From positions 160,001-224,000 of the forward strand of contig CAVXVB010000007.1 of the NCBI GenBank assembly GCA_963765205.1: DNA of 64,000 nt, written 5' to 3'. This DNA is from an uncultured Verrucomicrobiae bacterium (GTDB lineage Bacteria > Verrucomicrobiota > Verrucomicrobiia > Opitutales > JABDGR01). Made by a program: the position numbers and the translations under genes. Each line of letters starts with the position of its first letter. Positions within the stretch are counted from its first letter, which is position 1. The notes beneath the pieces were generated by a model. That model was not told the DNA's origin, made no database searches, and saw nothing but the letters and a program-made list of their open reading frames with translations. Below are positions 19,570 through 43,700 of the stretch, one piece after another.

Positions 19570-20438
19570 GGCGCGCGGCGGGCTTCGCCCAACCGTCGCC
19601 GACGAGGCAGGATAAAACAGTATTTTAGACTATAAATAATAACTTTTATATATTTAAATATTATAATTAATAGAAATAATGAGTAATTACGCGATCCACG
19701 GCCCGGTCGGAGTTCATGAATAACGAACGACAAGAGGGAACATCTGAGCACCGGCATCTAGGCATTTTACCCTAGAAAATTCAAATGAAGTGGCAATGGG
19801 CGGGCTGGGTTCCAAGCAGGAAACCAAAATGTGAACAACTCATGTCTTTTGCTCTGAATCAAAGACTTGGCAGGATGGTAAACTGTGAATAAAAAGGATA
19901 AATACTACGTTTAAGAACGTTATTATTGACCCAGGCCAGTCATTTTTGGCAGGGGGGATAAAAGGGGCGGTTTTCGCTCTTAAAAAAAATGAAAAAAATT
20001 CGTAGAAATATGTTGCGCCCTACAATTTTTTTACAATAATGGAAGTTAGCTGCGATTCTTCTACCCTCACCCCCCAACGCGTGTGTTCCCGAGTTAGATT
20101 ACGGGAAGGCCGCGTTTAGGTGTTTTCGCCCGTTGCTTTCCCCCAACTCCTGATAAGGGTTATTATTCCCTTTAATTCCCCTTAAAACCCCTTAAAACCC
20201 CTTGAATGATCGTTGCCCCGCCGCCCGCCGCCGCGCGTTTTCCCCTGGGAAAGGCGTTTTTCCGCTGTGCGGCGAGCGTTGATGATGCGCCAGTCAGGCC
20301 GTTGGTTTCCACCCCACCCCCACCCCTTTAAAAATAAACCCCCCCCCCCCTTGGTTTTCCGGTCCGGTTGCGCCAGTGCGGCAACCCGGGCTGAAATCCG
20401 AGGGAAAAAATCTCACCCCCGACCGCTGTTTCTGCAAC
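19570..20438 (+). promoter_or_regulatory. Long AT-rich upstream region of the giant gene
   Basis: About 870 bp non-coding. It has a very AT-rich block at 19615-19690, A-tracts at 19982-19998 before TTGCGC...TACAATAAT (20013-20040), a 10-nt tandem CCCCTTAAAA-type repeat at 20168-20205 and a C12 tract at 20339-20350. Confidence 0.5.
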
Positions 20439-22787
20439 ATGAACGCAACCCACCAAACTCGTTGTGACCGGACGAAAGTCCGGCCTGGGATCATTTTTCT
20501 TTTTGGCGCCCTGCTGGCGGGCCTCCTGGTTCCCCTGGGGGCGAGAGCGCAATTAACCATCGTGGACAAGGCCGACAATTCGTTGAGCCTGGACCAGGCG
20601 CTCACCGACATTCAGGACATCGCCCTGAACACCACCGCCGGCAGCGGCGACGAGTTGATATTCAACGGCACGCTGGAGTCGTTCAACCAGACGATTTCGG
20701 TGGGCGGCGGGGTTTGGGTGGGCACGCTGGCGGTGCAGAATCCGCAGGGGGCCATTTTTATCACGGGCAATGCGACCAATGCCGCGGCGGCGCTGACGCT
20801 GGGCAACCTGTCGGTCACCGGCGGCGGCGGCATTGACATGAGCAACACCTCGGTGAACCTGAGCATCTCCGCACCCGTCACCCTGGCCAACAGCCTCACG
20901 TTCACGACCAGCGTCAACGGCACCATCACGGTCTCGGGGCCGATTAACGACAACGTCCTGGGCGTCAGCCAGGGTTATGGCATCACCATCGGCCAGTCCA
21001 CCACGGCGGGCGACGTTTTTCTTTCGGGCAACAACACCTTCACGGGCAACCTCACGCTCAACGCCGGCACGCTGTATTTGAGTGGAAACAACAGCGCGGG
21101 CAACGGCGCGCTGGTCATCAACTCCGGCGTGCTGGAGAACAACAGCGGCAACGCGATTGTGCTCAATATTCCCGTCGTCATCGGCACGGCCGGGAACGCG
21201 ACGAGCGGCAACTTCACGTTCGACACCCAAGGCAATTCCAGCATCGCCAACGCTTCGAACAGCATGGTGTTCAACGATGGCGTCACGCTGGCGGTAAACA
21301 CAACGGTGACGACTTCCACGAACAGCGGGTCGTATGGTGGTTCCGGGAACCTGACCTTTAGCAACGTTACCGGCCCGGGGAACCTGACCCTGAAGGGCGC
21401 AGGCCCGAACCAGTTGGTGCTGGTGGGCACCAATAATTTTGGCGGCGGCGTGAACTCGGTGACGCCGGTGCTGACCATCAGTTCGGGGTCGGTGCGGTTG
21501 GGGTCGAACGGTTCGGTAACCGGCATCCCCGCGGAAATGGGCACGATTGCGGGTAACATTAACTCCGCCGGCGCGTTGCTCATCTTTAACGAGCCCTCGA
21601 ACTACACGGTCACGAACAACATCACCGGGACGGGCGGCGTGCAGCAACTCAGCACCAATAATACACTGACCTTCGGGATCACGGAGACCTACAGCGGCAC
21701 CACGACCGCCACCGGCCCGATTCAGCTCGGCTATTTTGGCCCCAACTTCAGCGGCAATTCCGCCTTCGGCATCCTGACGGCCAGCAACATTTCCATCGGT
21801 AATGGCAGTGCCCTCACCTTTGCCGAGCCGGGCAGCACCACTTATAATGGAACCATTTCCGGCGGCAATGGAGGGACTTCAGTGACCCTGACCGGGGCCG
21901 GGGTCCTGGCGAATGCCACCTACACGACCAACCAGACGGGCGCGAACAACAATTTGACCTTTGCGGCGAACACCTCGAACGCCTCCCTGGTTGGCGGCGC
22001 GGGCGACAACATCACGGTAACCTATATATATACCGGGGCGAATGCGGCGGAAGCGGTGGCGGTCAACGGCACGGCGATTACGGTCACCCTTGGGGCCACC
22101 GGGGGCAACACCGCCAGCGTGACCACGAACCTGAGCGGGAACAAGGACATCACTTACACGGCGGTGAACGCCGGGGCGGGGGCCGGCAACATCAACATTC
22201 AGTATGCCCAAAGCTCGACCTCGAACATCACCACGGCGTCGGTCAGCAACGGCAACATCATCGTGAGCCTGGCCAACGCCACGGCGAATGCCACGGCGCA
22301 GAATGTCATCAACGCCATCATGAACAATGTGCAGACGAATGCGCTGGTGACGGCAACGCTTGCGCCGGGCAGCGCCGGCAACGGCACGGAAGTGGCCACG
22401 ACGTCCAACATCACCCTGGCCGACACCGGCCCGGTGATAACCGCCACCACCGGCCCGGGCGCCTATGTTGCGGGGGTGAACTCGACCATCACCTCGACGG
22501 CCAATTCCATCATGGCCGATTTGAACATCAACAGCACCGCCAATGCGGTGATTAGCACCTCGCTGGCGAGCAGTGACGGCGGGGTCGGCACCGGGGCCTT
22601 GACGTTCGAATCTAGTCAGCGCGCTGGTGGGCACGGCGAATCTGACGGGCGGCACGAACCCCGCCATCACGCTGACCCTGGGCAATTTGACGAATGGGAG
22701 CAGTTACAATGGCACGACGACCATCAGCGCCGGCACCATCGTGATGGCCAACTCCTCGGCCTTGGGCAATTCGACGCTCATATATAA
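20439..22787 (+). CDS. Giant adhesin ORF segment 1 (signal peptide, PATR repeats; real frame ends about 22605)
   Basis: LSGNNTFTGNLTLNAGTL. The tail after FESSQR is out-of-frame sequence. Confidence 0.75.
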   Translation: MNATHQTRCDRTKVRPGIIFLFGALLAGLLVPLGARAQLTIVDKADNSLSLDQALTDIQDIALNTTAGSGDELIFNGTLESFNQTISVGGGVWVGTLAVQNPQGAIFITGNATNAAAALTLGNLSVTGGGGIDMSNTSVNLSISAPVTLANSLTFTTSVNGTITVSGPINDNVLGVSQGYGITIGQSTTAGDVFLSGNNTFTGNLTLNAGTLYLSGNNSAGNGALVINSGVLENNSGNAIVLNIPVVIGTAGNATSGNFTFDTQGNSSIANASNSMVFNDGVTLAVNTTVTTSTNSGSYGGSGNLTFSNVTGPGNLTLKGAGPNQLVLVGTNNFGGGVNSVTPVLTISSGSVRLGSNGSVTGIPAEMGTIAGNINSAGALLIFNEPSNYTVTNNITGTGGVQQLSTNNTLTFGITETYSGTTTATGPIQLGYFGPNFSGNSAFGILTASNISIGNGSALTFAEPGSTTYNGTISGGNGGTSVTLTGAGVLANATYTTNQTGANNNLTFAANTSNASLVGGAGDNITVTYIYTGANAAEAVAVNGTAITVTLGATGGNTASVTTNLSGNKDITYTAVNAGAGAGNINIQYAQSSTSNITTASVSNGNIIVSLANATANATAQNVINAIMNNVQTNALVTATLAPGSAGNGTEVATTSNITLADTGPVITATTGPGAYVAGVNSTITSTANSIMADLNINSTANAVISTSLASSDGGVGTGALTFESSQRAGGHGESDGRHEPRHHADPGQFDEWEQLQWHDDHQRRHHRDGQLLGLGQFDAHI

Positions 22788-25700
22788 TACCGGCGGCGGG
22801 GTTTTGAGCTTCGGCACCTTGACGACGGCGAATTTGGGCGGCTTGAGCGGGAACCAGAATCTGGCGCTCACGAATGCCACCGGAACCAACATCACGTTGA
22901 ACGTGGGCGGGGACGGCGCGAGCACCACTTACACCGGCGTGCTTTCGGGCAACTTGGGCAACTTCACCAAGTCCGGCGGCGGCACGCTATATTTGACGCA
23001 AAACAACACTTACACCGGTTTCACCAACATTACGGGCGGCCAGCTTGAAATTGGCAATATAAACGCCTTGGGCGCCAACGTTGATGGCGCGGCCAATAGC
23101 AATACCAGCCTCCAAGCGGCGAGCTTGAACATCAGCGGCGGCGGCGTGGAATGGGCGCCGAATTACCTGAGCACCTCCGGGGACAATGGCGACTTCACCG
23201 GGAAACTGGGCGTCCCCTCCCCCTCGACGCCGAATATCGGCAATGCGAATTTTAACACCAATGGCAACAACATCACCCTCACCAACAATATCCTGTTCCC
23301 GAATGGTACTTACGCTCTCTCGGGCAATGTCGGCATGACGGCGGTGCCCGGCAATGCCAGCGAGACCATCACCAAGTCCGGCACCGGCACCCTGGTGTTG
23401 GCCGAACCGTTGACAATCAATGTTACGACCGGCGGCAATGGCTCCGCCACTTCCGCGACCGTGAACGTAACGAACGGGACCTTGCAATTGGGCAATTTCG
23501 CAGTGGCGGGCGGGCAGCCGGTGAGCACCGCCGTCGGCGCCACCTTCAGCATCGCCTACAACATTTCGGACAACGCGAACCTGACGATGGAGGAACCGGT
23601 TTCGGCGACGATTAGCGGCGCGATTTCCGGCAACGGCGTCCTCAACGTCAACTCGACCGCCGGGCAGGTGGCGAATTTGACCACGACGGTGGCCGGGGCC
23701 AACAATGACATTCTTTATACGGCGGCCTCGGGCGTAGGCCCGACGGGAAACAACATCACCGTCGCTTATAACACGGGGTTTACCAACAGCTCCTTGGATA
23801 GCCAATATGCCAATGGCACCGGCGCGCCGACCTTTTCGGTATCGGGCAACGCGATCACGGTGAATCTGGCGAATGACGGAACCGCGCATGGCGCCAATTT
23901 TACGACCACTTTTGGCAGCAATAATGACGTCACCTACACGGCGAACACCTCGACGGAGTTTGGGGCGGCGGGCAACGGCATCAACATTGCCTACGTCAAC
24001 CCGAACGCCACCACGACGAGCACGACCGCCGTCGTTAATGCCACGACCAACACCATCACCGTCAACCTGGCGAACACGGGCTATGCCACGGCGAACCAAA
24101 CCGTGCAGGGGCTTACTTACACGGCCAACACGACGAATTTTGGCGGCACGGCCGGCAACGGCATCAGTGTCAGCTACGTGAATCCGGAGACCAGTAACGC
24201 GCCGCTCGGCTTTGTGGTGAACGGCACGAACCTGACGGTGAATTTGGCCACCGGGAGTTTCACCAGCGCGAACTTGGCCACCGGGCCCGCCAACGGGAAT
24301 ATTACCTACACGGCCAAGGCCAACGGTACGGCGACCGACAACATTCAAGTTGCCTATGTGGTTGCCGGCAATAACACCCCCCTGACGCTAAATGTCACCG
24401 GCAACCTCATTACGGTTAATCTGGCGACGGGCCCCAGCGGCACAGTCAGCACCACGGCCGCGACGTTGATCACGACCATAAACGGCAATTCCTCGGCCAA
24501 CGCCGTGCTGACGGCGGCCAACACGACGGGCAGCACGGGTGCTTCGACGCTGACGGCGTTAAGCGCGACGAACTTGACCGGCGGCTTGAACGGCGCCTCC
24601 GCGGCCAATCTCTCCACCAACAGCACGGCCACCGGCAGCAATGTCACCTTTACGTCGGTCGGGCTGGGCACGGCGCAGGACAACATTAAAGTTGCGTATG
24701 TCATTCCGTCCACGGCGAACTCCCCGCTTTCCATCGGGGTCTCGGGCAACAACATTACGGTGAATTTGGCGACCAATGGCGCCGATGCCCCGACGACGAC
24801 GGCGGCGCAATTGGTCACGGCCATCGCTTCGACGCCCCTGGCCGCCAATCTCGTCTCGGCCAGCGACCCCATCGGCAACGGCACGGGGGTGGTCGCGCTG
24901 TCCAATGTCAGCCTGACGAGTCTGGCGAATGCCACGGATCCCTCGATTACCACGAACGCCACCGCCCTGCAGACGGCGCTGACGGCCAATCTGACCTCCA
25001 ATGCCACGTTGGGCGCCTTGCTCAGCGCCGTGGCCGGGACGGGCACGAGCAACCTGACGACGGCGGGCGCAACGGCTTTTGCGAATGGTTCCACCGGCAC
25101 GATAACGGCCAACGCGTCCCAGGTGGTCACGGCGGTTAATGCGGTGGCCAGCGCTCTGGTGACGGCGGCTGTCGCGAGTAACGAGACAGGTGCGGGGCTA
25201 ATCACGAATGGCACGGGAACCATCCTGGCCACGAATCTCACTGGCGGACTGAACCCGAACATCACGACGACGGCGGAGGACCTGCTGACGGCGATCTCCG
25301 GAAACACGAACGTGCTGAACCTGGTGTCGGCGAATCTGGCCTCCGGGAACGACGTGGGCGAGGGCTTGCTGACGGGGATGAACACCACCAGTTTGGGCGG
25401 GGGCGCGATTTCGACGGCCACCACGCTGACGCTCACCGGCAGCAACAGTTTCAACGGGACGATCAACCTCAATGGCGGCACGCTCGCCATCGCGGTCACC
25501 AACGGGACGAACAACAGCACCACCACGCTGCAGAATTCCATCCTGAACTATGCCAACGGCACGTTCAATTACGGCAACTCGACCATCGTGGATTTGGGCG
25601 GCTTGACCGGCAACCAGAACATTGCGCTGACCAACCCGCAGAATGGCAAGAATGTGCAGTTGGTCATTGATGGATTCCAAAGCCCGGCCACGAGCAGCAT

Positions 25701-28700
25701 CCTGGGCGGCACCTCGAATACCAGCACCGGCACCGGGGTGCTCTATACCGCGACCCCGAACAACACAAACGGGAACCTTTCCATTGCTTATGTGGTGAGC
25801 GGCAACAACACAGTGCCTTCGGTGACCGTCAGCGGCAACGATGTCATCACGGTCAACCTGGCCACGAATGCGACGGGCGCCGTCGCTTCGAATATGACCG
25901 CCGCCGCCGTGGCGGCGCTGATCAACGCAAATTCCGCCGCAAGCGCGTTGGTGACGGCCGCCAGCAGCGGCACGGGGGTGGTGGGGGCGTTGTCCGCGAC
26001 CACGCTGGCCAATGCGGCCAATCCGACGGCGGGCGCGGCGGGCACGGTGGTGTCGAATGGGGTTTACAGCGGCGTGTTGTTCGGCGCAGGCTCATTGTTC
26101 AAGAGCGGCGTGGGCATCTTGACCTTGAGCGGCACGAACACCTACACGGGCGGCACCGTCATCACGGGCGGCGAAGTGGATTTCGCTTCGGGGGTGAATT
26201 TCGGCACGGGCAACCTGGTGTTGTTCAATGGCGGCATCCAGTGGGCGCCGGGCACGACGACGGACATCTCGAGCCAGTTGAAGGGGCCGTTCGGCGGCCT
26301 GATCGGGAACCTCACGCAGAATTCCGGCAACGACACGCTGGACACGAACGGCAACAATGTGATTTTCAACACGCCGGTTTCCGGCAACGGCACGTTGGTC
26401 AAGGCCGGCCAAGGGATTCTGACGCTGGCGGTTCCGAACACCTACAGTGGCGGGACCATACTGTCGGCCGGCCTCATAGACTTCAGCTCCCTCAGCGACT
26501 TTGGCACGGGGCAAATTACCCTGGCGGGCGGCGGCTTGCAATGGGGGCTGAACACCAACCTTGACGTCAGCAGCCGGTTAAACCCGGTCGTCATGGGCGC
26601 GAACGCAACCTTCTCGACGCCCAACAATTTGAATCCCGCCTTCACCAACACCAACATCGGGTTGGTGATCACCGCGAACGGCAGCACCACCCTGGCGGAC
26701 GGCTCGAACGGCAACAACATCACGATAATTTTTGGGCTTTCCCCGTCCAACACCACGGGGTTGACGATTAACGGCACCACCATCAACGTGGCCCTGAACA
26801 CGACGGCGACCGCTTCAAACGTGGTCTCGCTCATCAACGGCAACGCCACGGCGGCGGCGCTCGTCAGCGCGGCCCTGGCCCCGGGCAGCAACGGCGGCGG
26901 GGTGGACAACTATTTTGGGACGTTTAAGCTCTCGGGCGGCACGGACAGCACCCTCGACACCCAGGCGAACAATGTGACGTTGAGCGCGTCGCTGACAGGC
27001 CCCGGCGGCCTGGCCAAAGCCGGCAGCGGCATCCTGACGCTGACGGGCATCAACACTTTCACGGGCCCCACGAGCGTGAACGCCGGCACCTTGACGCTGG
27101 GCAACTCGCTGGCCTTGGAAGACAGCACGCTGACGCTGACCAATGGCAGCGTTGGCACGCTCAATTTCGGCAGCCTGACCAGCGTGACGTTTGGCTCCCT
27201 GGCGGGCAACGGCACCTTGGACCTGTCCAATTCGGTCCCCTCCGCCAATGCCACCACCGGGGTCCTGAATTTGATCGTCGGCTTGAACAATCTGAGCACG
27301 ACCTTCAACGGCACCATCACGGACGTAAACAGTTACGGCGGCACGGTGACGAAAGTCGGCAACGGCACCCTGACCCTCACCACGCCGAATACCTACACCG
27401 GCCAGACGTTCCTTAATGGCGGCGCGTTTGACTTTAACAACGTCAATAACTTTGGCGCCAACGGCGACGCCAACCTGACGATCAATGGCACGCTGGGCAC
27501 CAGCGTCATCTGGGCGCCGCAGGCCACGGGTCCGAGCGCGGATATTTCGAGCATCCTCAACAGCACGGGCGGGCTGGTTACCGGGAACATCACCTTCAAT
27601 TCCAACAGCAATGAGGTGACCCTCGCCACGCCGCTGAAGGGCAGCGCGAATTTGACCGCCGCGGCGGGGACGAGCATCCTGACGCTGGCGGGCGGCGTCA
27701 GCTCCAGCGGCCTGCCCAATGTGACGATCACGTCGGGCACCCTTGCGCTGGGCAACATCGGCAGCAATGGCGGCAACACTTCCGGAAACATCGCCATCAA
27801 CAATGGCACCACGTTGTATTTTAATGAGAACACGGCGCAAACCTTCTCGGGCCTGCTTTCCGGCGGGGGCAACATTAATGTCAACCCGGGCATGCCGGCC
27901 CTGAGTGTGGCGGCCGAGTCGCCGGCGAACACGAACCTCAACCTGTTTGCGAACGTCTTTGGGCCGATTAGCAACAACATCACCGTCCAATACGTCAACC
28001 CGGAGGCCAACAACCAGGCGCTGGGCGTCACGGTCAACAACACGACGGCGAGCCTGCTCGTCGGCTCGGTGGGTGCGAACAACGGGATCACGATCACGCC
28101 GAACGCGGCGAATGCGTCGGTGGCGGGCATTTACGGCGACGGCATCACGATCCAATATGTGCAAGGCGGCGGCAACACGACCACGGCGGCCAGCAGCGGC
28201 AACGTCATCACGGTCACTTTGAAAAGCGGCGGGGACACGGCGGCTGACGTCATCACGGCCCTGGCGAACAACGCCACGGTGGCCGCGTTGGTGACGGCGA
28301 CCAACGCGACGGTGGCCAATGTCACCAGCACGGGCGCGGGAATTATCAACACGACGGTGACGACGACGGCGTCGCTGCCGCTGATGGGCGGGGCGACGGC
28401 CATCGTGGCCAGCCTGGCCACGGACGGGAACGGCACGGCGGCCAACGCGACGACCACCTTTGGCAACAACAACGACTTGGTGTTCACCGCCAACGGCACG
28501 GGAGCCACCGGCTACTTTGGTTTCGCGGGCAATAATATCACAGTGCAGTATGTGAATGGCGTGGGCAACAACACCGCCACCACGGCGTCGGTCACGGGCA
28601 ACACGATTACGGTGACCCTGGGCACGAACGGCACCGGGGTGGTAAACGCGACGGCGGCGCAGGTGGCGGCGGCGATTGCGGCCAACACCTCGGTGGCCGC

Positions 28701-31700
28701 GTTGGTGACGGTCGCCAATGCCGCGAACAGCAACGGGTTGGGTTTGGTCTCGGCGACGACCTTGAATTTGACGGGCGGCGTGGACCCGAACATCACGACG
28801 TCGGCCAGCGCGCTGCTCTCCGCCCTGAACGGCAACACGACGGTGCTCACCGCGGGATTGGGTTCGGGCAGCAACGGCTCGGGGGATGTCACCAACGGCA
28901 CCTTTACCCTGAGCGGCGGCCTCAATGGCAGCGCGACCCCGGTGACGCTGAGTGACAACAGCAATCTCTTTTCGGGCAACGTCTATTTGAGCAATGGCTC
29001 GCTCACGCTGGGCGCCCCCCTGGCGTTGCAGTATGCCACGGTCAATGACAACCTGGGCGGCGGCACGCTGAGTTTCGGCAGCTTGACGAATGCGACCTTG
29101 GGCGGCCTCACCGGCAATGGCAACCTGGCGCTCGTGACCACGGCCGGCTCGGGGAATGTGACGCTCACTTTGGGCCAGGGTAATGTCAGCAGCGCCTTCT
29201 CCGGCATTATATCCGGCAATGTCAGCACCGGCGCCGGTTCGTTGATCAAGATCGGCTCGGGCACGCTGACGCTGTCCGGCATCAACACCTTCACCGGCGG
29301 CATGGTGATTGAGGGCGGCTTGGTGAATTTCAATTCGGTGCGCAGTTTTGGCAATGGCGGGGCCAACAGCGTCACCCTGCTGGGCGGCGGCATCCAATGG
29401 GCGACCAACACGGCCACGAATGTTTCCGGCATCCTGAACCCGGTGCTGGCCAGCGGGCCGACGAACGACTTGAACACCTTCGACACCAACGGGAACAGCG
29501 TCACCTTGTCCACGGCGCTGTCGGGCGTGGGCGGCATTGTCAAGCAGGGCGCCGGCACGCTGACGCTGACCGGCAACAACACCTTTATCGGGCCGACGTT
29601 CATCAACGCCGGCAGCCTGGCCTTGGGCAACGGCACGTTGCCGGGCTTCCTGATCAATTCCGCCCTCACCAACAATTCCAGCCTGCTGTTTAACGAGCCG
29701 CTGGACACCGTTTACTCGTCGGTGCTGGGCGGCGGCGGCGGCGTGTCGCAAGCCGGCCAGAACTCGAGCGGCATTTACTCGATCACGACGGGAAATACGA
29801 CGGCCAACAACGGCCTGACCTACGTCGCGACCGTGGCGAACCCGACGGGCGCCGGCGTTACCGTCTCTTATGTGCAAGGCACCGGTTCCACCACGACCGT
29901 GGGGGTTTCCGGCAGCAATATTACGGTGACGCTCCCCGCGGGCGGCGCGAATGCGACCCAGGTGCTGACGGCCCTGACCGGGTGCAGCAGCGCGCTGGCC
30001 TTGGTGACGCCTGAATTGACGCCGGTGATTGCGCCCTCCGTCGCGGTGCCGAATAACACCGGAAATGGCAGTGTCAGCGTGACGGGACCCTTGAATATGA
30101 GCGCGCCGCTTTACCAGGCGACGATCGGTTCGGCCAGCCAAGGCACGGGCTTGACCTTTACGGCGAGCACGGCGACCGCCGGCGCGGCGGGCGGGACCAC
30201 GACGATCCAGTATCTGGCCGGCACAGTTGCGAACCCGACCGTTTCGGTTAACGCGACCAACAACACCGTCATTGTCACCTTGAGCAATGTGACCGCCAAC
30301 AACACGGCCTCGAATGTCTTGGCGGCTTTGACGGCGGCCATTAATAGCAATACCGGCGGCATTGACAATTACCTGAGCAATGTGACCCTCACGCCCGGCC
30401 CGCAGGCATTTGGCGTCACGGCTGGCGCCGGTTTGGTCACGGCGGCGTCGCCGAAATTGATTGCGCCATTTACGAACCTGGTGCTCACCGGCAACAACTC
30501 TTACACCGGCACCACCTCGATCCAGGCGGGCACGCTGGTGGTGGGCAGCACGCTGGCCTTGCGGGACACCACGCTGAACTACAACACCACGACAAGCGGC
30601 ATTCTGGCCTTCGGCTATGCGAACGCGACCGCAAGCTACCCCGTCACGGCGGCCAACATCAATATCTTCAACGGCAACACGGATTTGGCCTTGATCAACA
30701 ACCAGGGCGGCGGCGTGGCCTTCAGCATCGGCGATAATAACGGCAGCTCGAGCTATTCCGGCAACTTAACCGGGCCAGGCTCGATCTTTAAAGTCGGCAG
30801 CGGCACCCTGACGCTCGGCGGCAATCTGAGCAGCTATGCGGGCGGGACGACCGTCGCCGGCGGCACCATCCTGTTGACCTCGGCGGACGACAGCACCTCG
30901 AGCCATCCGCTGGGCACCGGCTTGATCACGATGAACGGCGGCACACTCTCCCTGCCTTCCGGCGACACCTTTGATCCGACCGCGCAAGGGTTCACGTTGG
31001 GCACGGTGACCGCCAACGTGAACGGCACCTTGACCCAGGTTGCGACGAACAGCACACTGATCACCGTTAGTAACCTGACGTTGGCAAGCCCCATCACCGG
31101 CCCCAGCAATGGCGCGGCTTCCGGTTTGGACATCCAAACCGGCAGCAACATCACCACCTTGGTGGCGACCAGCACCTACCTTGGGACGACGACGGTCGGC
31201 GCGGGCACGACCCGAGGCAACCTGACGTTGAGCAACAACGCAACCAGCACCGGCGGTCTGGCGGGGCCGATCAACTTGTCGGGTAACCTGGGCAATTCCA
31301 CCTTTTCGAATCTGACCTTTAACATCAGCAGTTCGGCGCCGGGACTCACCGCCGGCAACTATACGTTTACGCAGAACATCAGCGGCAACGGCAACTTGAG
31401 CGAAAATGGCACCGCCAGCCTGATTCTGTCCGGCACCAATACCTACGACGGCAATACGACGATAGCCGCCGGGGCCGGCAGCATCTATCTGGGAAGCTCG
31501 AATGCCTTGGGCAACAGCACGTATGCGTCCAATAGCACGACGGCCGGCACGCTCCAGTTTCTCGCGGGGGCGGGCGGCACGTTTGTCTTGGGCGGTTTGG
31601 CGGGCAACGCGAGCATCCCCTTGGTGGACACGGGGAATAATCCCGTGATTTTGGCGGTCGGCGCCAACAGCATAACCTCCGCCACGCCCTACAACGGCAC

Positions 31701-34700
31701 GCTGTCGGGGGCCGGCGGGCTGATCAAGACGGGGTCGGGCACCCTCGTGCTGGTCGGCAACCAAACTTACACCGGCGCGACGGCGATTCCCTTTGGCACT
31801 TTGCAACTGGGCAACAACACCGCGGGCCTCACGACCGTGTTGACCAGCACCTCGGGCATCAACGATGTTGGCAACCTTGCTTTTGACGAACCGGCGGGCA
31901 CGCTGACCCTCAGCACCCTGATTTCCGGCGGCGGCACCCTGGCGCAAATTGGCAACGTGGGTTCCACGCTCGTGTTCATCAATCCCAATGACGCCCTCAG
32001 CGGCGGCTGGACGGTCACCAACGGGGTCATTCAATTTGGCGACGGCACGCAGCCCAATGCGACCTTGAACACCACCCACACCACGCAGCCGGAGGGCACC
32101 CTGCACCATCACCTCCCCCGGGGTGGTGATATTCAACGATACGCAGTCCATCGTGAATGGGGCCCTGGCCAACACGGTGGTTACGACGTTTATCCAGGGC
32201 ACGGGCACTTTGGTGCAAAACGGCTACACGAACACCACGCTCGCCAATTTGACCACCGGCTCGGGAAGCACGGCGCTGACGTGGACGGCCAATGGGACGG
32301 GGAACACGACTTACGGCGGCATGTTGGGCAACAACATCTCGATTGCCTATGTGACGCCGGAAACGCCGAACTCACCGCTGAGCTTTACGCTGACGGGGAA
32401 TGCGTTGACCGTGAATTTGGCCACGAACGCCACCGGCACGGCGGCCAGCAATATTCTTGGCGGCACTTCCAATACGAGCACCGGCACCGGCGTTGACTAC
32501 AAGGCGGTCACGATTGGCTCGGCCGGGAACAACATCGCGGTGAATTATGTGGTGGCGGGCGACAACACGCCGGCATCCGTGGCGGTCAGTGGCAACACCA
32601 TCACCGTCAACCTGGCCACGAATGCGACGGGCGTGGTACTGCCGACCATGACGGCGGCCAACATTGCGGCGAACGTCAATGCGAATCCCGCGGCCGCCCT
32701 CTTGGTGACGGCGTCCAGCACCGGCACCGGTGTTCCCTCGGCCAATTTTTCGGGGACCTTGGGCCAGGCGACCGGCGGAAACAACACCCTGCAATCAGCG
32801 GGCGTGGACACGGTCTCCATCACCACCCCGGCGAACATCGCCAGCGCCTTCACGAATGGAACGGCGAACGCCACGGTCACGGGGATTCTGACGGTCGCCG
32901 GCACGGGCGCGGGCAACCTGAGCGCGCTGGCGGCCACCAATCTGGCCAACGGCGTGTCGCTCCCCGCCTCGCTGACGCTAACGAACAACAACACCATCAC
33001 CACGGTTTCCTTCAACTCCACGTCGGCGGCGGCGACGACGGCGCCGGGCGATTTGATTCTGGGCGGCTCGCTGGCCCTTGAAAACGCCAACATCACCGGC
33101 TACAACACGGGCGGGAACATCGGGAACCTCAACCTGAACGCCGTGAACGCGACCAATACGATTGCGAACGGCGGCTTGACGGCGGTGACGCTGGGCGGCC
33201 TCAACGGCAACAAGACGCTGGACATCTCGAACCTTACTTTCACGCTGGGCAACAACAACGTCAGCAGCACCTATGCCGGCATCCTTGCGAGCGCCACGGG
33301 TCCGGCCACGCTGGTCAAGACGGGCAACGGCACCCTCGTGCTGGTTAACAACAGCACCTTTAACACGTCCGCATCGGCCACGCCGCTGGGTTCGAACGTG
33401 ACGGTCAACAACGGGACGTTGCAACTGGGTAATGCCACGCTGCAAGGCATGGTGCCGGGCTCGATCCAAGTGCTCAGCCCGAACATCTCGAACGGGACCA
33501 TAGCCACGCTGACCCTGGCCGAGCCGCTGAACTTCACCTACGGCAACGTGGTCTTTGGCTCGGGCAATTTGACGCAGAACGGCAACACGCCGGCCACCCA
33601 GGCGGCGGGCACGACGGCGCTCACCAACGCCAACAGCAATATCACTTACACGGCCGTGGCCGCCGGCACGGCGGGCAACGCCTTCAACGTCAGCTATGTG
33701 AATCCGGGCACCCAGAACTCGCCGCTGAGCTTCACGGTCAACAGCACCAACCTGGTGGTGAGCCTGGCGACCTCCAACAACGGCGTGAATGCGAATGCCA
33801 CGACCAGCTTTGGCAACAATGAAGACCTGCTCTTCATGTCCGAAAAATCGGGCACGTCAAGCAACGGGATCACGGTCAGTTACGTGAACCCGGGAACTTT
33901 CCTGGCCGCGCCGACCATCGCCTCCGCCAATGCGACAAACGTGGTCGTGGACTTGGCGACGACGGCCGCCACCGCCGCCAACGCGACCATGAGCACGAAT
34001 CAGTTGAGCTTCACCGCCAAAGCGGCCGGGGCCCAAGGTGACAACATTCAGGTGGTGTTCGCCACGCCCTCGGGTGCGTCAGATACGGTCACGGTGTCAG
34101 GCAATATCATCACGGTGACGCCCAAGACCGGTGGCGACTCTCCCGCCAACATCGTCACCGCCCTTGGCAATGCGACGCTTTCGATTGCCCCGTCTTTGAT
34201 TACCGCGGCCGTGGGCTCCAATAGCACAGGCAACTTTACGACTTCGGAGGCCGCGACCACATTGGCCAACGGCACCAACCTCACGATCAATGCCACGACC
34301 AACACGGCGACGGCGATTGCAAACCTGATCAACAGCAATGCGACGGCCAATGCGGTGTTGACGGCGAACATTGCGCCAACCCAAACCGGTGCGGGCGATG
34401 TGACGACGCTGGGCACGTTCACGCTGGCGAACGGCGCCAACGCCTCGATTGCCTCGAACATGACGGCGGCGAACATCCTTGCGGCGGAATTGGCGAACAG
34501 CAGCGTCACCGGCAATGTGACGCCATCGTTGAGCGGCACAGGCGCCGGGCTGGTGACGGCGTTCGGTCCGATCACCCTGTCGGGCGCGACGGCCGCCATC
34601 GGGAACACATTAACTTTGACCGGGGCGAACACTTACACGGGCAATACCACGGTTTCACAGGGCACGCTGCAAATTGGCAATGGCACGGCGGGCAGCATCA

Positions 34701-37700
34701 GCCCCAACTCGAGCATCAGTCTGGCCTCGAGCACCAACCTGATCATTGACGAAGGCCCGACCATCACGTTGTCCAACCCCATCACCGGCGCGGGCAACGT
34801 GTTTATCCTGCAAACGAACCCCGTGACGCTGACCGCCACGAATTTCACCGGCGGAACTTACATTGGCCAGGGTGGCACCCTGGTGCTGGGCGGCAACACG
34901 GCCTTGGCGAACTCGACGCTCAACCTCATCCTCGGCAACTCCTCGGCGAATGGCGCGCTGAGTTTTGGGACGCTGACCAATGCAAGCATCGGCGAGCTGT
35001 CCGGCAACGAGAATTTGGTGCTGAGTTCGGGCTCCACTCCGCTGACGCTCACGTTGGGGAACAACACCAACGCGGCGGCGGCCATTTATACCGGCAATTT
35101 GAGCGGGTCGGTCGCCGGCACGAATTTGATCAAGACCGCCAACAGCCAGCCGCTGACCTTGGCGGGCACGCTCACCTTTAACGGCAACATCACGACCAAC
35201 GGCACCCTGACCCTGTCGGGCAATGTGCAAATTGGCGGCGGCATCAATGTCAACAACGGCACGCTGACGTTGTCCGGGCCGAATAACACCTACACGGGTG
35301 GAACGACGATCAACAGCACGGCGACGGCGCAATTCAACTCGGCGAGCAGCTTTGGCACGGGGCAAATCGTGGTGAATAATGGCACGCTGCAATGGAACGG
35401 GCCGAATGTGAGCGCCCCGAACCTGGACATTTCGTCGCACCTGACCAACGGCATCGCCACGGGGAACGTGACCTTGAACTTGGTGAACACGGGTGGGGTG
35501 GCGGAAAACGTGACGTTTAATTCGGCGATTGGCGGCAGCGGCAACCTGATCATCCAAGGATTTAATGGCACCAACGGCACCGCCGCCACCACCGGCGCGG
35601 CCAATGCCAGCATCACCTACTCGCTGCCGACCACGCTTTCGAATTTGGGGAACGGGATTCAGGTGGCCTTGGTTAATCCCGAAATCGCCAACTCGTCGCT
35701 GGGGGTATCGGTCGCCAACATTGCGGCGAACCTCGCCACGGGCAACACGGCCAGCAACAACGGCATCACCTACTCGGCCAACACGTCCACGGCCAGTGTG
35801 GCGGGGATTTTTGGCAACAATATCACCATTGCCTATGTGAACGGCAACGGCCTCAGCGTGCCGACGACGGCCTCGGTGACGGGCAACGTCATCACGGTCA
35901 CCCTGGGCACGGATGCGACGGGCAATCTCAGCGTGGCGAACACCACGGCGCAGAGCGTGATTAACGCCATCAACGCCAACAGCAGCGTGAAGGCCTTGGT
36001 CAACGCCTCGCTCACCACGGGTGACACGGGCGGCACGGGCTTGGTGATACCGCAGGCGGCGACGACCTTCACCGGCGGCGCGACGACCGTCAATGTGAGC
36101 CTGGCCACCAATACCTCGGGCACGTTAGCCAACACGACGCTGGGCACGTCGCAGCCGGACGCGGCGGTGACGTTCACGGCTCCGAAACAAGGCGCGGCCG
36201 CAGTGACCATTGCCTATGTGAACCCCGGCGTTGCCAATTCGACGCTGGGCGTGGCCAGCAACTCGACGGCCACCAACATTGTCATCAACCTGGCGACGGA
36301 TGCGAATGGCAACGTGACCACGACGGCGGCGCAGATAGCGAGTTTGATTGGCAATGCCACGGTGGCCAATGCCACTTTCAGCAACGGCACCGCGGTCAAC
36401 ACGGTGGTCTATGCGTCCCTACCGGCGACGGACAGTGTGGGCGGCGGCGTGGTGCCGGTGCAGTCGGCGACCTGGACGGCGGGCACCGCGGCGGGCATTA
36501 CTTCCAACGCAACGCAAGTCATCAGCGCGATTAACGGCAACACCAGCCTCATCGTGGCCAGCAACACGACCGGGAGCACGGGGGCGGGCCTGGTCACAGC
36601 GGCGAGCGCCAACCTAACCGGCGGCGTTAATGCCGGCGTGCTGACCCTGAACGCCGCGGACCCGAACCTGAACGGCCCGGTCAACATCACCAACGGCACC
36701 CTGTTGCTGGGCAACAACAATGCGCTGCAAAATGCGACCCTGAATTATGGGCCGGGCGCCGGCGTGCTCCAATTTGCGCCGGGCATTTTGTCGCCCAACA
36801 TCGGCACCGTGAATTTGACGGCGAACCTGCAGTTGACGACGACAGCCGGGCAATCCATCACGCTCATTGAAGGCGGGAACAACCAGACGACCACCTTTAC
36901 CGGAACTTTGAGCGGCACCACGGTCAACAATGTCGGCAACCTGACGAAGATTGGCACGGGCATTCTGTTCCTGGGGGCGAACAACACGTTTAACGGCACC
37001 ACGACGATCAGCGGCGGCGAAATCAACTTCTCGTTCGCCGGCAACTACACGACCTACACCCAAGGCGCCACGGCGACGAACTTCGGCTACCAGCCCAACA
37101 TCGTGCTGAGCGGTGGCGGGCTGCAATGGGGCGCGGGCGTGACGGTGGACCTTTCGCCCAACATCACCATCGGCGGCACCAACGCGCTCGACACCATTGA
37201 CACCAACGGCCAGAACGTGGCCCTGGCCTCGACCGGGTTCAGCGGCACGGGCGTCCTGGTCAAGGCCGGTGGCGGCACGCTGACGTTGACGCAGCCGGAA
37301 ACCTACAGCGGCGTGGCGAATGCCTCGCTCGGCCTGGGCACCACGATCATCACCGGCGGCGCGTTGCAATTGGGCAATGGCTCGACCTCCGGCATCGGCA
37401 GCGTGGCGACCGGCTCGAATATCACGGACAATGCCATATTGATCTACAACGAAGGCGTGAACACGACCGTGAACAACCTGATCACGGGCACGGGCGGGTT
37501 GGTGGAGAATGGAATCAACACGGGCCAGGCCTCGAACACCACGACCTTTGGCAGCCAGAAGGACTTGACCTTCACGGCGGTGGCCGGTGGGAATTTGACC
37601 TACAATATTTCCTACGTTGCGCCGACGGCGTTGGGCGCGACGCCGAGTGTCACTGTCAGCGGCGGCAGCAACATCACGGTGCATTTAGGCTCAGTGAGCG

Positions 37701-40700
37701 GGAACGCCAACCTGACCACGAATGTGGGCGCCAACGCGAACATCCTCTACACCGCGAAGACCACCGGCGGCGGCGGCAATAGCGACACCGTGACCTATGT
37801 GGCCGCGGGCAACAACACCCCGCTTTCCCTGGCGGTGAGTGGCAGCAACATCACCGTCAACCTGGCCACGAATGCCACGGGCGGCGTCACTTCGACGGCG
37901 AATCAGGTGCTGGCCGCCTTGGCCGCCAACACAAGCGTCACCGCTTTGGTGACGCCGACGATTGCCCCGGGGAATGACGGCACGGCCGTGGTGGCCGCCC
38001 TTTCGCAGACCCCCCTGGCGAACGGCACTTCCACCCCGACGGCGAACTCGACAGCGGAGCAGATCATGTTGTTGCTGCAGAACACGCCGGCGGCGACGAC
38101 GCTGATTAACGCGGTGCTGGCGAACGGCGAAAATGGGTCGGGGGTGTTGGCTACGACGGGGTCGCCCATCGTGGTGAGCGGCGGCAGCAGTTCGACCGCG
38201 GCCACGAGCTTGACGCTGAATGCCGCGAACACTTTCAACGGCACGACCAGCATCCAGGCGGGCACGCTGATTCTGGGCGTTCCGCTCGCGCTGCAAGACA
38301 GCACGCTTAATTATGTCACCACGGGGGGGGCGCTTTGAGCTTCGGCTCGCTTTCGGCGGCGACCCTGGGCGGCTTGACCGGCAATCAAAACCTGGCCTTG
38401 ACCAATGGGACCAGCGCGGCGGTGGCTTTGACGGTCGGCCAAAACAATGGTTCGACGGCTTATTCCGGCAACCTGACGGGCAGCGGCAGCTTGACCAAGT
38501 CCGGAACGGGCATCTTCACCCTCGGCGGGTCGGGCGACAGTTACTCCGGGGGCACGACGGTCACCGGCGGTCTGATCAACTTCAACGCCCTGGCGCAGTT
38601 TGGCTCCGGAGCGCTGGTGCTCAGCGGCGGTGGCGTGCAATACACGCTGGGCCTGACGGCGGACGTTTCGAGCCTCATCGGGGCGACGGGCCTGGGCGCG
38701 GGCAACGACACGATTGACACGAATGTCAACAACGAGACGTTTGGGACGGCGCTGGGCGGGGCCGGCACGCTGGTCAAGGCCGGCGCCGGCACGCTGTTCC
38801 TCTCGCGGCATGACACCTACACCGGCGGCACCATCATCACCAACGGCCTGATTGATTTCACCTCGGTGGCAAGCGGCTCGACCAACTTTGGCACGGGCGT
38901 CATCACGCTGGCCGGCGGCGGGTTGCAGTATTCGGTCGCCAGCACCGGCACGGACGTTTCGCCGAACATCACCCTGGGCACCGGCCTGGACACGATTGAC
39001 ACGAATGGCACGACGGAAACGTTTGCCACCTCCGTGCCGGGCACGGGCACTTTGGTGAAGGCCGGCGCCGGGACGTTAATTCTGGACGCGGTGGAAGGCT
39101 ACACGGGCGGCACCGTCATCAACGTGGGCACGCTGCAATTGGGGAATGGCGCGGTGAACGGCTCGATGAACGCCACGCTGCCGTCCTTCAGCAATATCCA
39201 GGACAACGCGGTCCTGAACTTTGACGAAGCCGGCTCGACGAGCTTTGGCGGCATCATCTCCGGCACGGGTAATCTGACCCAGGTGGCGGCGAACACGCTG
39301 ACCCTCACGGGCGCCAGCACCTTTGACGGCACGGCTTCGATTCTCTCCGGCGGCACGTTGACCCTGGGCATCAGCACCGCGCTGCAAAACGCGACGCTGT
39401 CATATACCACCACGGGCGGCGCCTTTAGCTTCGGCAGCCTGCCCAATGCGGCTTTGGGTGGCTTGAGCGGCAACCAGACCCTGCCGTTGACCAATAATGG
39501 CAGCGCGGCGGTGGCCTTGACGGTTGGCGCCAATGGCTTCAACACCACGTATAGCGGCATCCTGAGCGGCAGCGGCAGCCTGACCAAGATTGGGAACGGC
39601 ACCTTGACCCTCAATCCGACCGGGACGAATTCCTACGCCGGCAACACGACGGTTAATGGCGGCACGCTGGATCTGGCGAGCGCGGGGGCCTTGAGCAACG
39701 CCGGCACGAGTGCGCTCATCGTCAACAACGCCAGTGTGCTCAACGGTCTGGGCGGCGCCCTAAGCATCAACAACAACCAGACGTGGTCGGGCAATTTGAA
39801 CTACATTGGCAGCTTCACCTTTGGGAACGCCGCCACGCCAAGCACGTTGACCCTGGCGAGCAACTCCACGCTCAATCTTTCGGGCAATGTGCTGGTTTAT
39901 AACGTGAACCCGGCCAATGCCACCCTGGCGGGGGCGGCGGGCAACAATGTGAGCATCACCTATGTGAAGCCGGGCACGGCCAATTCGGCGGCCAGCCTGT
40001 CCGTCACGGGCAACGCGATCGTCATCAACCTGGCCACGGACGCCAACGACAATGTGAGTTCGACGGCCAACAGCATTCTCAATTTGATTGGCAATTCCTC
40101 GGTGACCAACGGCACCGCGGCGGGCAATCTCGTGACCGTGGCGCTGGGCGCGAACAGCACCGGCACCGGTTTGCTCAATGCGTCGGCCCTGGCCTCCCTC
40201 ACGGGCGGCAATGCCACCAGCAACGCGACGCTGACCAGCATTTTTGGGACGACGACGATTAATGACGCGATAGTGCAGACCGGGACGCCGGGCGAGACGC
40301 TGGCGGTCACCGGCGCGGGGAATTTGACCTTCGGGGGCAATGGCACGGCGGCGGCGAATCTCACTTCGAGCATCAACGCCCCGCACCTGTCGGTGACGGG
40401 CAATGAAGTCATCACCATTGGCACGGGGGCGGTGGTGAATGCGGGGGCGCCGAGCAACGCCACGAACCAAGGCTACAATGTGTTCGGCTTCAATCCGGGG
40501 GACAATGTCACGTTGACGCTGACCGGCAACGGCATCTTGAACAGCGGCAACGTGGAAGTGGGCTTGGGCAACACGGGCGCCCTGCAAGGCGTAATCAACT
40601 CGACGCTGAATATCGGCGGCACTTCGCAACTGACCGCGAACGACCTGTGGATCGGCGAGGGCAGCACGGGCGACTCGGTTTCCGACTTTACGACGGCGCT

Positions 40701-43700
40701 GGTCAATCAAACCGGGGGCACGGTGATTTTGACGGGGAACAGCGCCGGGGGCGGCGGGTTGCAATTGGGCGGCCAATTCTCCTATGTGCTCAGTTCGACC
40801 AACGTAACCTACAATTTCAGCGGCGGCAATTTGGAGACCACGTCGATCGTGGCGGCGAATGTCGGCACCACGGGCTCGGTGTTGTTTAACTTCAACGGCG
40901 GCATTTTGACGGCCCTGGCCAACAGCAGCATCGCGGGGGTTAATGGCGCCACCGCGAACACGACTTTCATTTCGGGCGGGGCCCTCGGGGTCAATTCGCT
41001 GGTGGACAACGCGGGCGGGGCGATCATCAACACGAACGGCTTTAACATCACGATTGCACAGAATTTGACGCACAACCTCACCTTGGGCTTAACGCTGGAC
41101 GGTGGTTTGACGAAGGTGGGCGCGGGCACCTTGACCTTCCCGATTACGCAGAACGACACTTACACGGGCAACACGACGCTGGGCAACGCCACCACGGTGG
41201 GCGGCACCTTGAATGTGTCGCAAGACAGCGCGCTGGGCGGCAATCCGAATGCGACGCTGATCTTTGGGAACACGGCCACGCTGCAACTTGGCTCGACCTT
41301 CACCCTTGGCCAGGGGCGCACGGTCAGCATCGGCAGCAGCCTCACCGGGATCATTGACACCCAGACTTACACCTTGAATTTCGGCGGCAACATTGTGGGG
41401 CATGGGAGCTTGGAAGAAACCGGCAGCGGGACGTTGAACCTGTTCGGGTTCAACACCTACAATGGGAGCACGATCATCAACTCCGGCACCCTGGAGCTCA
41501 ATTACGCCAGCCCCGGGGCGCCCTCGACGAACATGATCAATGGGACCTCGGCCTTGGTGCTGAATGGCGGAGGCACCCTCTTGCTCCAAGCCATCCCGGT
41601 GGCCCTGACCGACACGCAAAATTTCAGCAGCACGCAGATTAATGGCGGCACCGGCGTGGCCACGGTCACCATCAACGGTTCGGCGGCGGCGAGCGGCCCG
41701 ACGGTGAACCTTAACTTTGGCCCGATGTCGCGCACGACGGGCGGCGTGCTGGAACTCACGGAGGCGGGCAATGGTTCCTTGAACTTCCTGACCCCGTCGA
41801 GCGCCGGCCTGAATGCGCACGACATCACCGACAGCGATCATACACCGTTTGTGGTTTTAAGCACCGCGAACAACGGGGTGGACTGGGGCGCGTATGGCAA
41901 TGCCTCGACCACCGGGGCGCCCATTGTGCCCCTGAACCAAGTGAACGGCTACACGCTGATCACGTCCGCCGCCAATTTGAGCAATGTCAACTCGCCGACG
42001 GAAAGCGTCGCCCTGTCTTCGCCACTTCAAAAGTTCCAACTCTCCTCGAATGTGACGATGTCGGATATTTCCTACCTGACGCCGCAAAGCGTCAATCCGA
42101 TTATTGACATCAACCAGATCTATGCGATGGCCGTGGGCGGCGTGTTGGTCTCGAACGGCATCGGCAACGGTAACACCGCTGAAATCGCCGACGGCGCCAT
42201 AACCCCGGTGGCGGCGGGCGGCGACCTTCTCGTGGTCCAGGGTCAGCTTGGCGGCTCCAGCGGAGCCGGGCTAATCTTTACCAACACCATTCTTGCCAAT
42301 GTGGGCGGCCAGCCGACAAGTCTGGTAAAGATGGGGGTGGGCAACCTTGCAGTGGATGGCGGTCCGGGCTTCAACGGCTTTACCCCTTTCACCGGCAATA
42401 CCTACCTGGACCAAGGTTTCATCCAGTTGAGTCCGGTCAGCACTGAAAACGGCGCAAATGGCACGACGGTGAATTCCTTCCTGGAAAACAGTGAACTTAT
42501 CTTCCAGGGCGGCTCGCTTAATATTCCACTCAACCCCTCCGGCTTCGCCCAGGTTGGGGGTATTGCGGGCACGCAGAATATCGTCATCCTCAGCGATGGC
42601 ACGCTGGCACTCACGCCGCGCGCGGGGGTCAATGCGGTGTTGAGCGGAAACATCAACAGTCTGGCCAGCGCTGCGCAGTTTAGCCTAATCATGGCCGGCC
42701 CCGGCAGTGAAACGCTGAGCGGCAACAATTTCATTGAAGGCGGGATCATCACCCTCGAGGGCGGCACGCTCAAAATCGGCGGTGCGGCGATCTTTGGCAA
42801 CGGCACCACCAATACGGAGGACACGCTCTATCTCCAGGGTGGCAGCATTGACAGCCTCGGGTTTACGTCGGTGGTGAATAACACAACTCTCACCAACACC
42901 CTTAACCCCATACCAATTAGCTTCGTTGATCCGAATAACATCAATCCCAACGGCGCGGTGACCTATGTTGGTTCCACCACCGGGTTGACGCTGGGCTTGA
43001 ATGGCAACATAACCCTGGCCACCTCGTCGTCCTCGGCCACCAACACGATCACGGTAACCAATAACACCTTGACCTTGGCGGGGGTGATTGGCGGCAATTC
43101 GGAGATCGTCAAAGCCGGCCCCGGCGCGCTGCAATTGACGGGGAACAACGGGAACATCACCGGCGGGGTTTACTTTAATGGCAACATTCTCCTCACGGGC
43201 GGCAATCTGGTGGTGACGAACGACCTGCAATTGGGCTTGGTGCCCACGCTCACGGGCACGACGGCCTCCTCCGGCAACATCCTCATCGAGGGCGGCGCGC
43301 TCAATGCGAACTTTGCCATCAGCGGCAACCGCGTGATCGAGGTCGGCAACGCGACCCTGGGCAACGGCACGTTCAACGTGTCGACCAACACCTCGACCGT
43401 GGTGTCCGGGTATATTGAAGATGTGACGGGGAACACAGGCGGCATCCTCCAACTGGAGGGCAATGGCACCTTGGTGCTCAACGGCGGCGCGGCGAACACC
43501 TACACCGGGGGCACGGTTTTGAGCAGCGGCATCCTCAACATTATTTCGACGGCGTTGTCCACGGCGGGCACGGCGGACGGCGCGTTGGGCGCGGCGGCGG
43601 CGGGCGTCACCTTCACGGGCAATGCGACGTTGCAGGCCGGCACCACGACCGATCTGAATGCCGCCCGGTTGGTTACGGTTAGCCCGGGTGTCACGGGCAA

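Follow-up and report, generated by a model that had tools for sequence, protein, structure and literature searches.

Nested self-insertion of a ~110-residue module as the probable basis of a four-level arm on a giant PEP-CTERM protein of an uncultured Verrucomicrobiae bacterium

The window analysed here is a stretch of 64,000 nucleotides from an uncultured Verrucomicrobiae bacterium (GTDB lineage Opitutales; JABDGR01), namely positions 160,001 to 224,000 of the forward strand of contig CAVXVB010000007.1 in the NCBI GenBank assembly GCA_963765205.1. It carries a gene for a giant surface protein, and within this gene the segment 23671..25404 (+) encodes three opening halves of a module of ~110 residues, followed by two whole modules and then by three closing halves. 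We conclude, with a probability of about 0.8, that this segment is a four-level arm formed by nested self-insertion of the module, D1(D2(D3(D4,D5))). Such an insertion had been proposed in a reading of the sequence made without database searches (the sequence-only reading), and it is supported by the balance of opening and closing halves over a large set of arms, by branched arms of the form (()()), by the arms of an ortholog in a congener and by the predicted fold of a simpler sister arm. The pairing of halves within the four-level arm itself would follow from these.

Order of the halves in the four-level arm

The reading frame at 22627-32496 (+) translates to a product of 3289 amino acids (aa; P0001), of which residues 349-926 correspond to 23671-25404. 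Two profile hidden Markov models (HMMs), one for opening halves (O-HMM, 55 positions) and one for closing halves (C-HMM, 48 positions), were seeded with the ten halves of the arm and iterated over the entire gene. Refined HMMs were rebuilt on 135 opening and 114 closing halves from the window and three congeners. In addition, a whole-module profile, A1, was made from 17 contiguous modules and included none of the six split halves. Using our own HMMs, the order of halves in residues 349-926 is O O O (O C)(O C) C C C, i.e. ((( () () ))), which agrees with the three openers, two whole modules and three closers of the sequence-only reading, C3 being the weakest. The halves, with their independent E-values (iE) from the first HMMs unless stated otherwise, are as follows:

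23680-23880 (+): O1, opener of the outermost module D1; O-HMM iE 3.0e-14; A1 positions 1-61, E 1.5e-5
23902-24081 (+): O2, opener of D2; O-HMM iE 9.4e-15; A1 positions 2-67, E 5.0e-8
24088-24258 (+): O3, opener of D3; O-HMM iE 6.8e-18; A1 positions 4-69, E 6.4e-11
24283-24591 (+): D4, contiguous tip module; A1 positions 2-111, E 3.3e-30
24283-24432 (+): O4, opener of D4; iE 7.4e-18
24451-24591 (+): C4, closer of D4; iE 3.5e-12
24616-24939 (+): D5, contiguous tip module; A1 positions 1-112, E 2.9e-30
24616-24780 (+): O5, opener of D5; iE 3.5e-18
24793-24939 (+): C5, closer of D5; iE 9.0e-11
24949-25095 (+): C3, closer assigned to D3, the weakest half; first C-HMM iE 1.9e-6, itself a seed
25105-25254 (+): C2, closer assigned to D2; C-HMM iE 3.0e-8, refined HMM iE 2.2e-7; not among the A1 matches
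25264-25407 (+): C1, closer assigned to D1; C-HMM iE 3.2e-14; A1 positions 46-110, E 1.4e-5

It should be noted that the first-HMM E-values hold partly by construction, because the halves of the arm served as seeds. The refined HMMs recover nine of the ten halves. A1 recovers the three split openers and the two tip modules, but only one of the three split closers (C1). In the congener G003, two arms whose sequence suggests orthology have the parse (((()))), and each of their four closers was detected, including one at the place of C3.

After C1 the beta-strand repeat region takes up again, and the flanks are those that had been read from the sequence as PATR repeats: the beta-strand-repeat model TIGR02601 scores above its cut-off of 19.85 bits both upstream (33.2 bits) and downstream (56.3 bits) of the arm, its closest matches lying ~200 residues off in each direction. 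On the arm region itself (23590-25720), neither Pfam, even at E <=1, nor NCBIfam matched any family. A word-indexed homologue search with residues 330-950 returned only the protein of the window, and a search of genome contigs for related loci with the arm as query gave 187 pattern matches, of which 0 were confirmed.

We also considered that the halves could be a compositional artefact of N/T/G-rich sequence. This was rejected because they match profiles of acidic phage proteins, which have a very different composition.

Nesting across arms and predicted structures

Arms were parsed from the window, from six giant congener frames and from 148 of the best 150 (of 4129) database representatives, P0002 and P0013 being left out as the window's own pieces. 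At a threshold of iE <=0.01 this gave 314 arms, 122 of which are non-trivial, i.e. contain '((' or '))'. Openers and closers are equal in number in 70 of the 122, and 69 of these 70 nest properly, as compared with ~20.6 expected under random order within the arm (window, 6/6; congeners, 10/10; database representatives, 53/54). The maximal depth is 4 in the window and the congeners and 5 in the representatives P0012 (686 aa) and P0044 (1063 aa), while P0027 has at least seven openings. The nesting layout is a trait of the family and not a singular oddity of the window protein.

A comparison with congeners points in the same direction. Congeners hold unbroken giant frames of 15,328, 13,111 and 14,016 aa, and the 13,111-aa frame, on contig 8 of G003, aligns collinearly with the window gene in eight tblastn pieces of 41-52% identity. 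Arms are matched at positions 484/495, 1070/1028, 3927/3971, 4380/4411, 5039/5081, 5689/5597 and 6469/6505 of the window and G003 proteins, respectively. Three of the matched arms (window positions 1070, 5039 and 5689) differ from the ortholog by one innermost module alone, namely: (((()()))) in the window vs. (((()))) in G003; (()()) vs. (()); and (()) vs. (()()). Under nesting, whole modules should be gained or lost within an outer pair that stays the same, and the differences thus give comparative support for insertion.

The two-level arm (()) at 37502-38203 was modelled with AlphaFold2 from a 40-row alignment that included 39 other (()) arms. The model covers 234 residues with a mean predicted local distance difference test score (pLDDT) of 92.9 and a predicted template-modelling score (pTM) of 0.76. 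By HMM, its parts are the outer opener (residues 13-63), the inner opener (72-125), the inner closer (130-176) and the outer closer (183-220). The split outer halves are predicted with a confidence equal to that of the inner module: by ten-residue blocks, the mean pLDDT is 87-96 for the outer opener (residues 11-70) and 95-97 for the outer closer (residues 181-220). Both modules show the same succession of four strands (E), two helices (H) and two strands, with E22-26, E33-39, E49-53, E57-61, H185-193, H196-199, E202-206 and E223-226 in the outer module, and E81-88, E96-100, E109-113, E116-120, H133-142, H144-149, E150-154 and E167-171 in the inner one. Each of the two junctions has a predicted connecting strand (E64-72 and E176-181). 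Three unattached pieces would hardly be expected to give a pTM of 0.76 over 234 residues.

This model was also compared with known structures. VIA-align found 27 of 48,161 chains at Z >=2, with tail sheaths making up most rows. The top match is the phiCD508 sheath (Z 8.1, root-mean-square deviation 2.9, 97 residues, model 67-176 against chain 99-203), followed by 3hxl (Z 6.8) and 9ezm (Z 6.2), which are tail sheaths too (DSY3957 and H. borinquense are among the sheath systems matched); lower rows contain the sheaths of phiKZ, T4 (gp18), P1, A-1(L) and Mu as well as domains D2-D3 of FliD. Foldseek gave no match against the PDB at E <=0.001 and three against BFVD at this threshold, all of them unnamed or uncharacterized phage proteins (TM-scores 0.23-0.47). 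In a sequence search of the PDB with A1, the best match was again a tail sheath, 8fop, at a non-significant E of 0.099. The nearest clusters in the ESM Atlas are unnamed hypothetical proteins, DUF3383 appearing at 0.81 only. From the model, a relationship between the module and the outer domain inserted in contractile-tail sheath proteins is probable; we grade this as probable and not as shown because Foldseek alone was not significant.

We propose that the module would consist of four beta strands, forming the opening half, followed by two short helices and two further strands, forming the closing half. The two ends of the module would be adjacent, and the loop that leads from the final strand of the opening half (ITVNLAT) into the first helix (TAAQV..AI) would tolerate insertions. 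If this loop took up a whole module, the host would be split into a distant opener and closer which would still fold together, and repeated insertion would lead to D1(D2(D3(D4,D5))), a rod with a length of about three modules that ends in a tip of two. The chain would run outward via the openers and return via the closers, so that the arm would join the solenoid at a single point. The physical pairs of the four-level arm would then be O1-C1, O2-C2 and O3-C3; extending the pairing to it from the (()) arm is a further step, made on the strength of homology and very short linkers.

Several observations weigh against this arrangement. C3 was detected solely by the HMM that it helped to seed, and both the refined C-HMM and A1 miss it; since A1 misses C2 as well, the weak points of the arm are C3 and, less so, C2. 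Openers and closers are unequal in number in 52 of the 122 non-trivial arms (window, 2/8; congeners, 8/18; representatives, 42/96). We attribute this to diverged halves, shortened metagenomic proteins and a second insertion site (see below), an attribution that was checked for some arms; for example, the '((' of the window at ~54800-55440 corresponds to two whole modules by A1, so that its closers have diverged and were missed. A shared-history test, in which a split opener and its nested closer are compared for resemblance to the same contiguous modules, ranked the nested partner first in 22 of 43 cases where 16 were expected; the result is weakly positive and was not used. The AlphaFold2 model of the four-level arm (23629-25461; nine-row alignment containing eight other nested arms) is unusable, with a mean pLDDT of 46.2 and a pTM of 0.28. 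It is confident solely in D4 and D5 (pLDDT ~75-88 in D4), and the closer region is drawn as long low-confidence helices; a VIA search with this poor model gave a Z of 4.9 to the phiCD508 sheath, over D4. As to the (()) arm, we infer the contact between its outer opener and closer from pLDDT, pTM and secondary structure. Finally, the fold matches are moderate, and according to the tool's note a top Z of 7-8 is often reached by models that have no clear relative.

Structure prediction of the four-level arm, a check proposed with the sequence-only reading, hence gave no usable model. A prediction of O1 (74 aa) and C1 (52 aa) as a two-chain complex, with 70-row alignments for each and without controls, scored 0.29 against a mark of 0.32 and is counted neither way.

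The helices of the poor model bear on a different arrangement, in which openers and closers are separate units and do not pair, a run of openers making one beta-rich body and a run of closers a helix-strand body. The placement of C3 and C2 away from the openers (pLDDT <50) would fit it, as would the series of lone openers in P0017, P0028, P0148 and the protein of G003 contig 23. We consider it very unlikely, since a block arrangement would not give interleaved forms such as (()()) and (()(()(()))), and the near-complete nesting of the equal-count arms (69/70) also speaks against it. Furthermore, the contiguous module is one domain, the sheath match spanning opener and closer alike (model 67-176), and the model of the (()) arm gives its split halves the same confidence as its inner module. 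Some 'lone' openers of the window (48878-49192, 54802-55098 and 55150-55437) are in fact whole modules with diverged closers by A1.

The halves could also pair in a different manner, either crossed (O1 with C3, etc.) or domain-swapped between neighbouring fibre chains. The closers are all alike, so that sequence cannot assign partners, and the shared-history test was weak. The geometry argues otherwise, as the linkers between successive halves span just a few residues, and C3 must sit near the end of O3 because it begins directly after the tip, provided that the two ends of a module adjoin. The sister (()) arm, moreover, is predicted to fold as a single body in one chain (pTM 0.76). Crossed or swapped pairing is, in our estimate, highly improbable.

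The giant gene and its other arms

The features that define the gene and its product are listed here:

20439..60405 (+): giant surface protein gene, ~13,300 codons, from lists of open reading frames (ORFs) and their translations
20376-22787, 22627-32496, 32123-38338, 38335-46377, 45902-50521, 50524-60405 (+): the six reading frames of the gene
22600-22700, 32150-32260, 38300-38370, 45930-46060, 50480-50560: the five frame changes of the gene
20439..20552 (+): putative N-terminal signal peptide, with a basic stretch, a hydrophobic core and ARAQ, seen by eye in the translation
22960..23055 (+): closest TIGR02601 beta-strand (PATR-type) repeat upstream of the four-level arm, E 3.3e-8, 33.2 bits, residues 112-143 of 22627-23670
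60289..60360 (+): PEP-CTERM sorting signal, TIGR02595, residues 764-787 of 58000-60402

The host protein matches the TIGR02601 and TIGR02595 models above cut-off. TIGR02601 does so on all five pieces scanned (33.2, 56.3, 59.2, 62.1 and 59.8 bits), and TIGR02595 scores 22.4 bits against a cut-off of 16 on the final residues, where the motif VPEPSTW...GWRRKR is visible in the translation. The Pfam PATR model reaches 18.5 bits on the first piece of the gene, below its cut-off of 27. On those pieces of the window protein that were scanned with Pfam and NCBIfam, none of the flagellar terminal helical regions (Flagellin_N/C, Flg_bb_rod/Flg_bbr_C) and no sheath core (Phage_sheath_1C) was found. The arms would project from a cell-surface fibre sorted via the PEP-CTERM/exosortase system and, by analogy with such domains on phage sheaths and flagellar filaments, may act as exposed decoration or binding surfaces.

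The giant product is rich in T (15.2%), G (14.5%), N (11.8%), A (10.8%) and S (9.2%), and D, E, K and R together make up 5.3% of it; the phage relatives of the module, in contrast, look rich in D and E. The product contains 625 N-x-S/T motifs where composition alone would give ~370, an excess that could reflect glycosylation or just the repeat motifs.

The five frame changes within 40 kb may be due to assembly error, to slippage (slipped-strand switching) or to decay. If decay were the cause, the gene would be a pseudogene in this organism, its protein not made and the arm a relic, and the contrast with the unbroken frames of the congeners would be in keeping with this. Against decay, however, the six pieces have open frames of 800-3300 codons each, and the identity of 41-52% to the ortholog is kept along all of them. 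Moreover, one of the changes coincides with a run of eight G at ~38322-38329, a typical site of assembly error or slippage. We regard a pseudogene as unlikely; in any case, this alternative bears on expression and not on the nested architecture.

The HMMs detect ~19 arms in the giant gene, many of them single modules, and the whole-module matches of A1 in the 4.02-Mb genome, 32 in number, all fall within this gene. Besides the four-level arm, the gene contains:

21924..22604 (+): arm (()), by HMMs
27919..28926 (+): arm (()()), by HMMs; the first guest precedes the last strand of the outer opener
32252..32956 (+): arm (()), by HMMs
33611..34591 (+): arm ((())), by HMMs
35588..36631 (+): arm (()()), by HMMs; (()() under the stricter threshold
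37538..38161 (+): arm (()), by HMMs; confidently folded in the AlphaFold2 model of 37502-38203

The arm at 27919-28926 illustrates the second insertion site, at which the guest enters before the last strand of the host opener and this strand follows after the guest. The same site is seen in G003 (L010:16880-18328 (-)) and in P0064, P0075, P0082, P0086 and P0130.

In the distal third of the gene, openers without detected closers occur at 46703-46996, 48878-49192, 50965-51132, 54802-55437 and 57187-57306, and at least four of these lone openers are whole modules by A1, with diverged closing halves. Long series of lone openers are also found in the protein of G003 contig 23 and in P0017, P0028 and P0148.

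The neighbours of the giant gene are housekeeping genes, namely: trmD; panC; an ABC transporter; and those for ATP synthase subunits a and b. A 677-aa ORF 15 kb upstream, at 3517-5550 (+), matches pAdhesive_15 ('ice-binding-like adhesive') at E 1.3e-16 and putatively encodes a second surface protein.

Relatives of the module and known systems

When A1 was searched against 1.84 billion representatives, 4129 proteins matched at E <=0.001 and 1923 at <=1e-10. Thirty of these relatives were scanned with Pfam. Their host proteins include P0021, of FlgL type according to the source's name, where the module lies between Flagellin_N and Flagellin_C; P0043 and P0114, FlgE-type hook proteins in which the Flg terminal regions are present; and P0149, a tail sheath with a Phage_sheath_1C core that bears two modules. 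The module also occurs in the PATR/PEP-CTERM relatives P0110 and P0144 and in the further PATR proteins P0005, P0051 and P0061, two of which have nested arms. The phage family phrog_8757 ('virion structural protein') matches P0064 (7.3e-13), P0035 (2.3e-14), P0020 (1.5e-10) and P0073 (1.4e-9), and the small proteins that it matches consist almost wholly of nested modules. PF17481 scores between 18.0 and 22.6 bits on relatives (E 1.5e-4 to 4e-3), under its gathering score of 31.4.

The sequence-only reading had known of no PEP-CTERM/PATR protein with such a layout. Uniqueness of the layout as such can no longer be upheld, as nested copies of the module occur in many phage-like, flagellar and other PATR proteins, and recursive insertion has been published for the T4 sheath and the RNA polymerase of cyanobacteria (PMC3004832, PMC13114784).

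Among close relatives, a first sample had the module in 3 of 6 other congeners and in 0 of 34 genomes from 33 other genera; a search of the same phylum at E <=1e-8 found it in 0 of 300 other genomes, representing 148 other genera. Because the distribution is patchy and the module has phage relatives, capture from phage by this genus is suggested. G003 (L009-L017) encodes three giant paralogues, of 15,328, 13,111 and 14,016 aa, with 106 module matches, and its arms range up to ((())((())())) and (()(()(()))).

Taken together, these data lead us to a wider and more tentative proposal, whose odds we put at slightly under even: that an unnamed ~110-residue module of phage origin may be a general self-nesting block with two fixed insertion loops, unlimited nesting and shapes that can be written as bracket strings, and that this genus may have captured it and, within an exosortase-sorted fibre of 13,000 residues, amplified it to ~45 copies, the topology of the arms evolving by gain and loss of whole modules.

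The module is common and yet has no name in the family libraries searched, with 4129 relatives, no Pfam or NCBIfam match on the arm and weak Pfam matches on its relatives that fall below cut-off. The bracket grammar is simple and can be checked, and would enable annotators to parse what passes for 'low-complexity' sequence in giant surface proteins, in phage virion proteins and in the outer regions of flagellar proteins. It would also link phage decoration domains with bacterial surface fibres, and a loop that takes up whole domains repeatedly could be a natural scaffold for protein engineers. For the organism, the prediction is a fibre bristling with side arms that vary among close relatives.

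As for known systems, the descriptions of the PATR/PEP-CTERM families (TIGR02601, PF12951 and TIGR02595) omit inserted arms. A literature search whose coverage stopped short of subscription journals yielded no account of nested modules on PATR/PEP-CTERM proteins or of self-nesting by sheath-like domains. The phrog_8757 and head-decoration-like phage proteins resemble the (()) arm of the window (25-41% identity); unlike the giant protein, they are short (250-750 aa) and rich in acidic residues, and have neither a solenoid nor a sorting signal.

The chain of flagellin domains follows an out-and-back path. The outer domains of flagellar proteins (flagellin, FlgL, FlgE and FliD) are like the arms in that P0021, P0043 and P0114 bear the module and that FliD D2-D3 weakly matches the predicted fold (Z 2.4-2.6). 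Flagellar proteins differ in having terminal helices, which were not found on the window pieces scanned, whereas the host of the window arms is a solenoid.

The outer domain of contractile-tail sheaths resembles the module in its predicted fold (Z 3.0 for gp18PR of T4), in exposure, in insertion into a host and in weak sequence echoes. The host there is the sheath core, whereas here it is a beta-strand-repeat solenoid with a PEP-CTERM signal, and Pfam sheath families gave no match at cut-off on the modules of the window. In T4 gp18, domain I is inserted into domain II and II into III, and the nested topology of the chain (I in II in III in IV) resembles the nesting of the window arm (PMC3004832). 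The nested domains of gp18 differ in fold, however, and their depth is fixed, whereas in the window a single module is nested in itself, with variable depth and with branching.

A further known system is Si3 of the beta-prime subunit of cyanobacterial RNA polymerase, for which a 2026 survey describes recursive domain insertion to six levels and thus multi-level nests, as in the arm; the words 'sheath' and 'flagell' are absent from that survey (PMC13114784). Si3 differs from the module in its unrelated fold and in belonging to a cytoplasmic enzyme, where it occupies one site in one conserved protein. Its domains presumably all come from one family. The module of the window, in contrast, nests in many unrelated hosts and also forms tips in which modules stand side by side.

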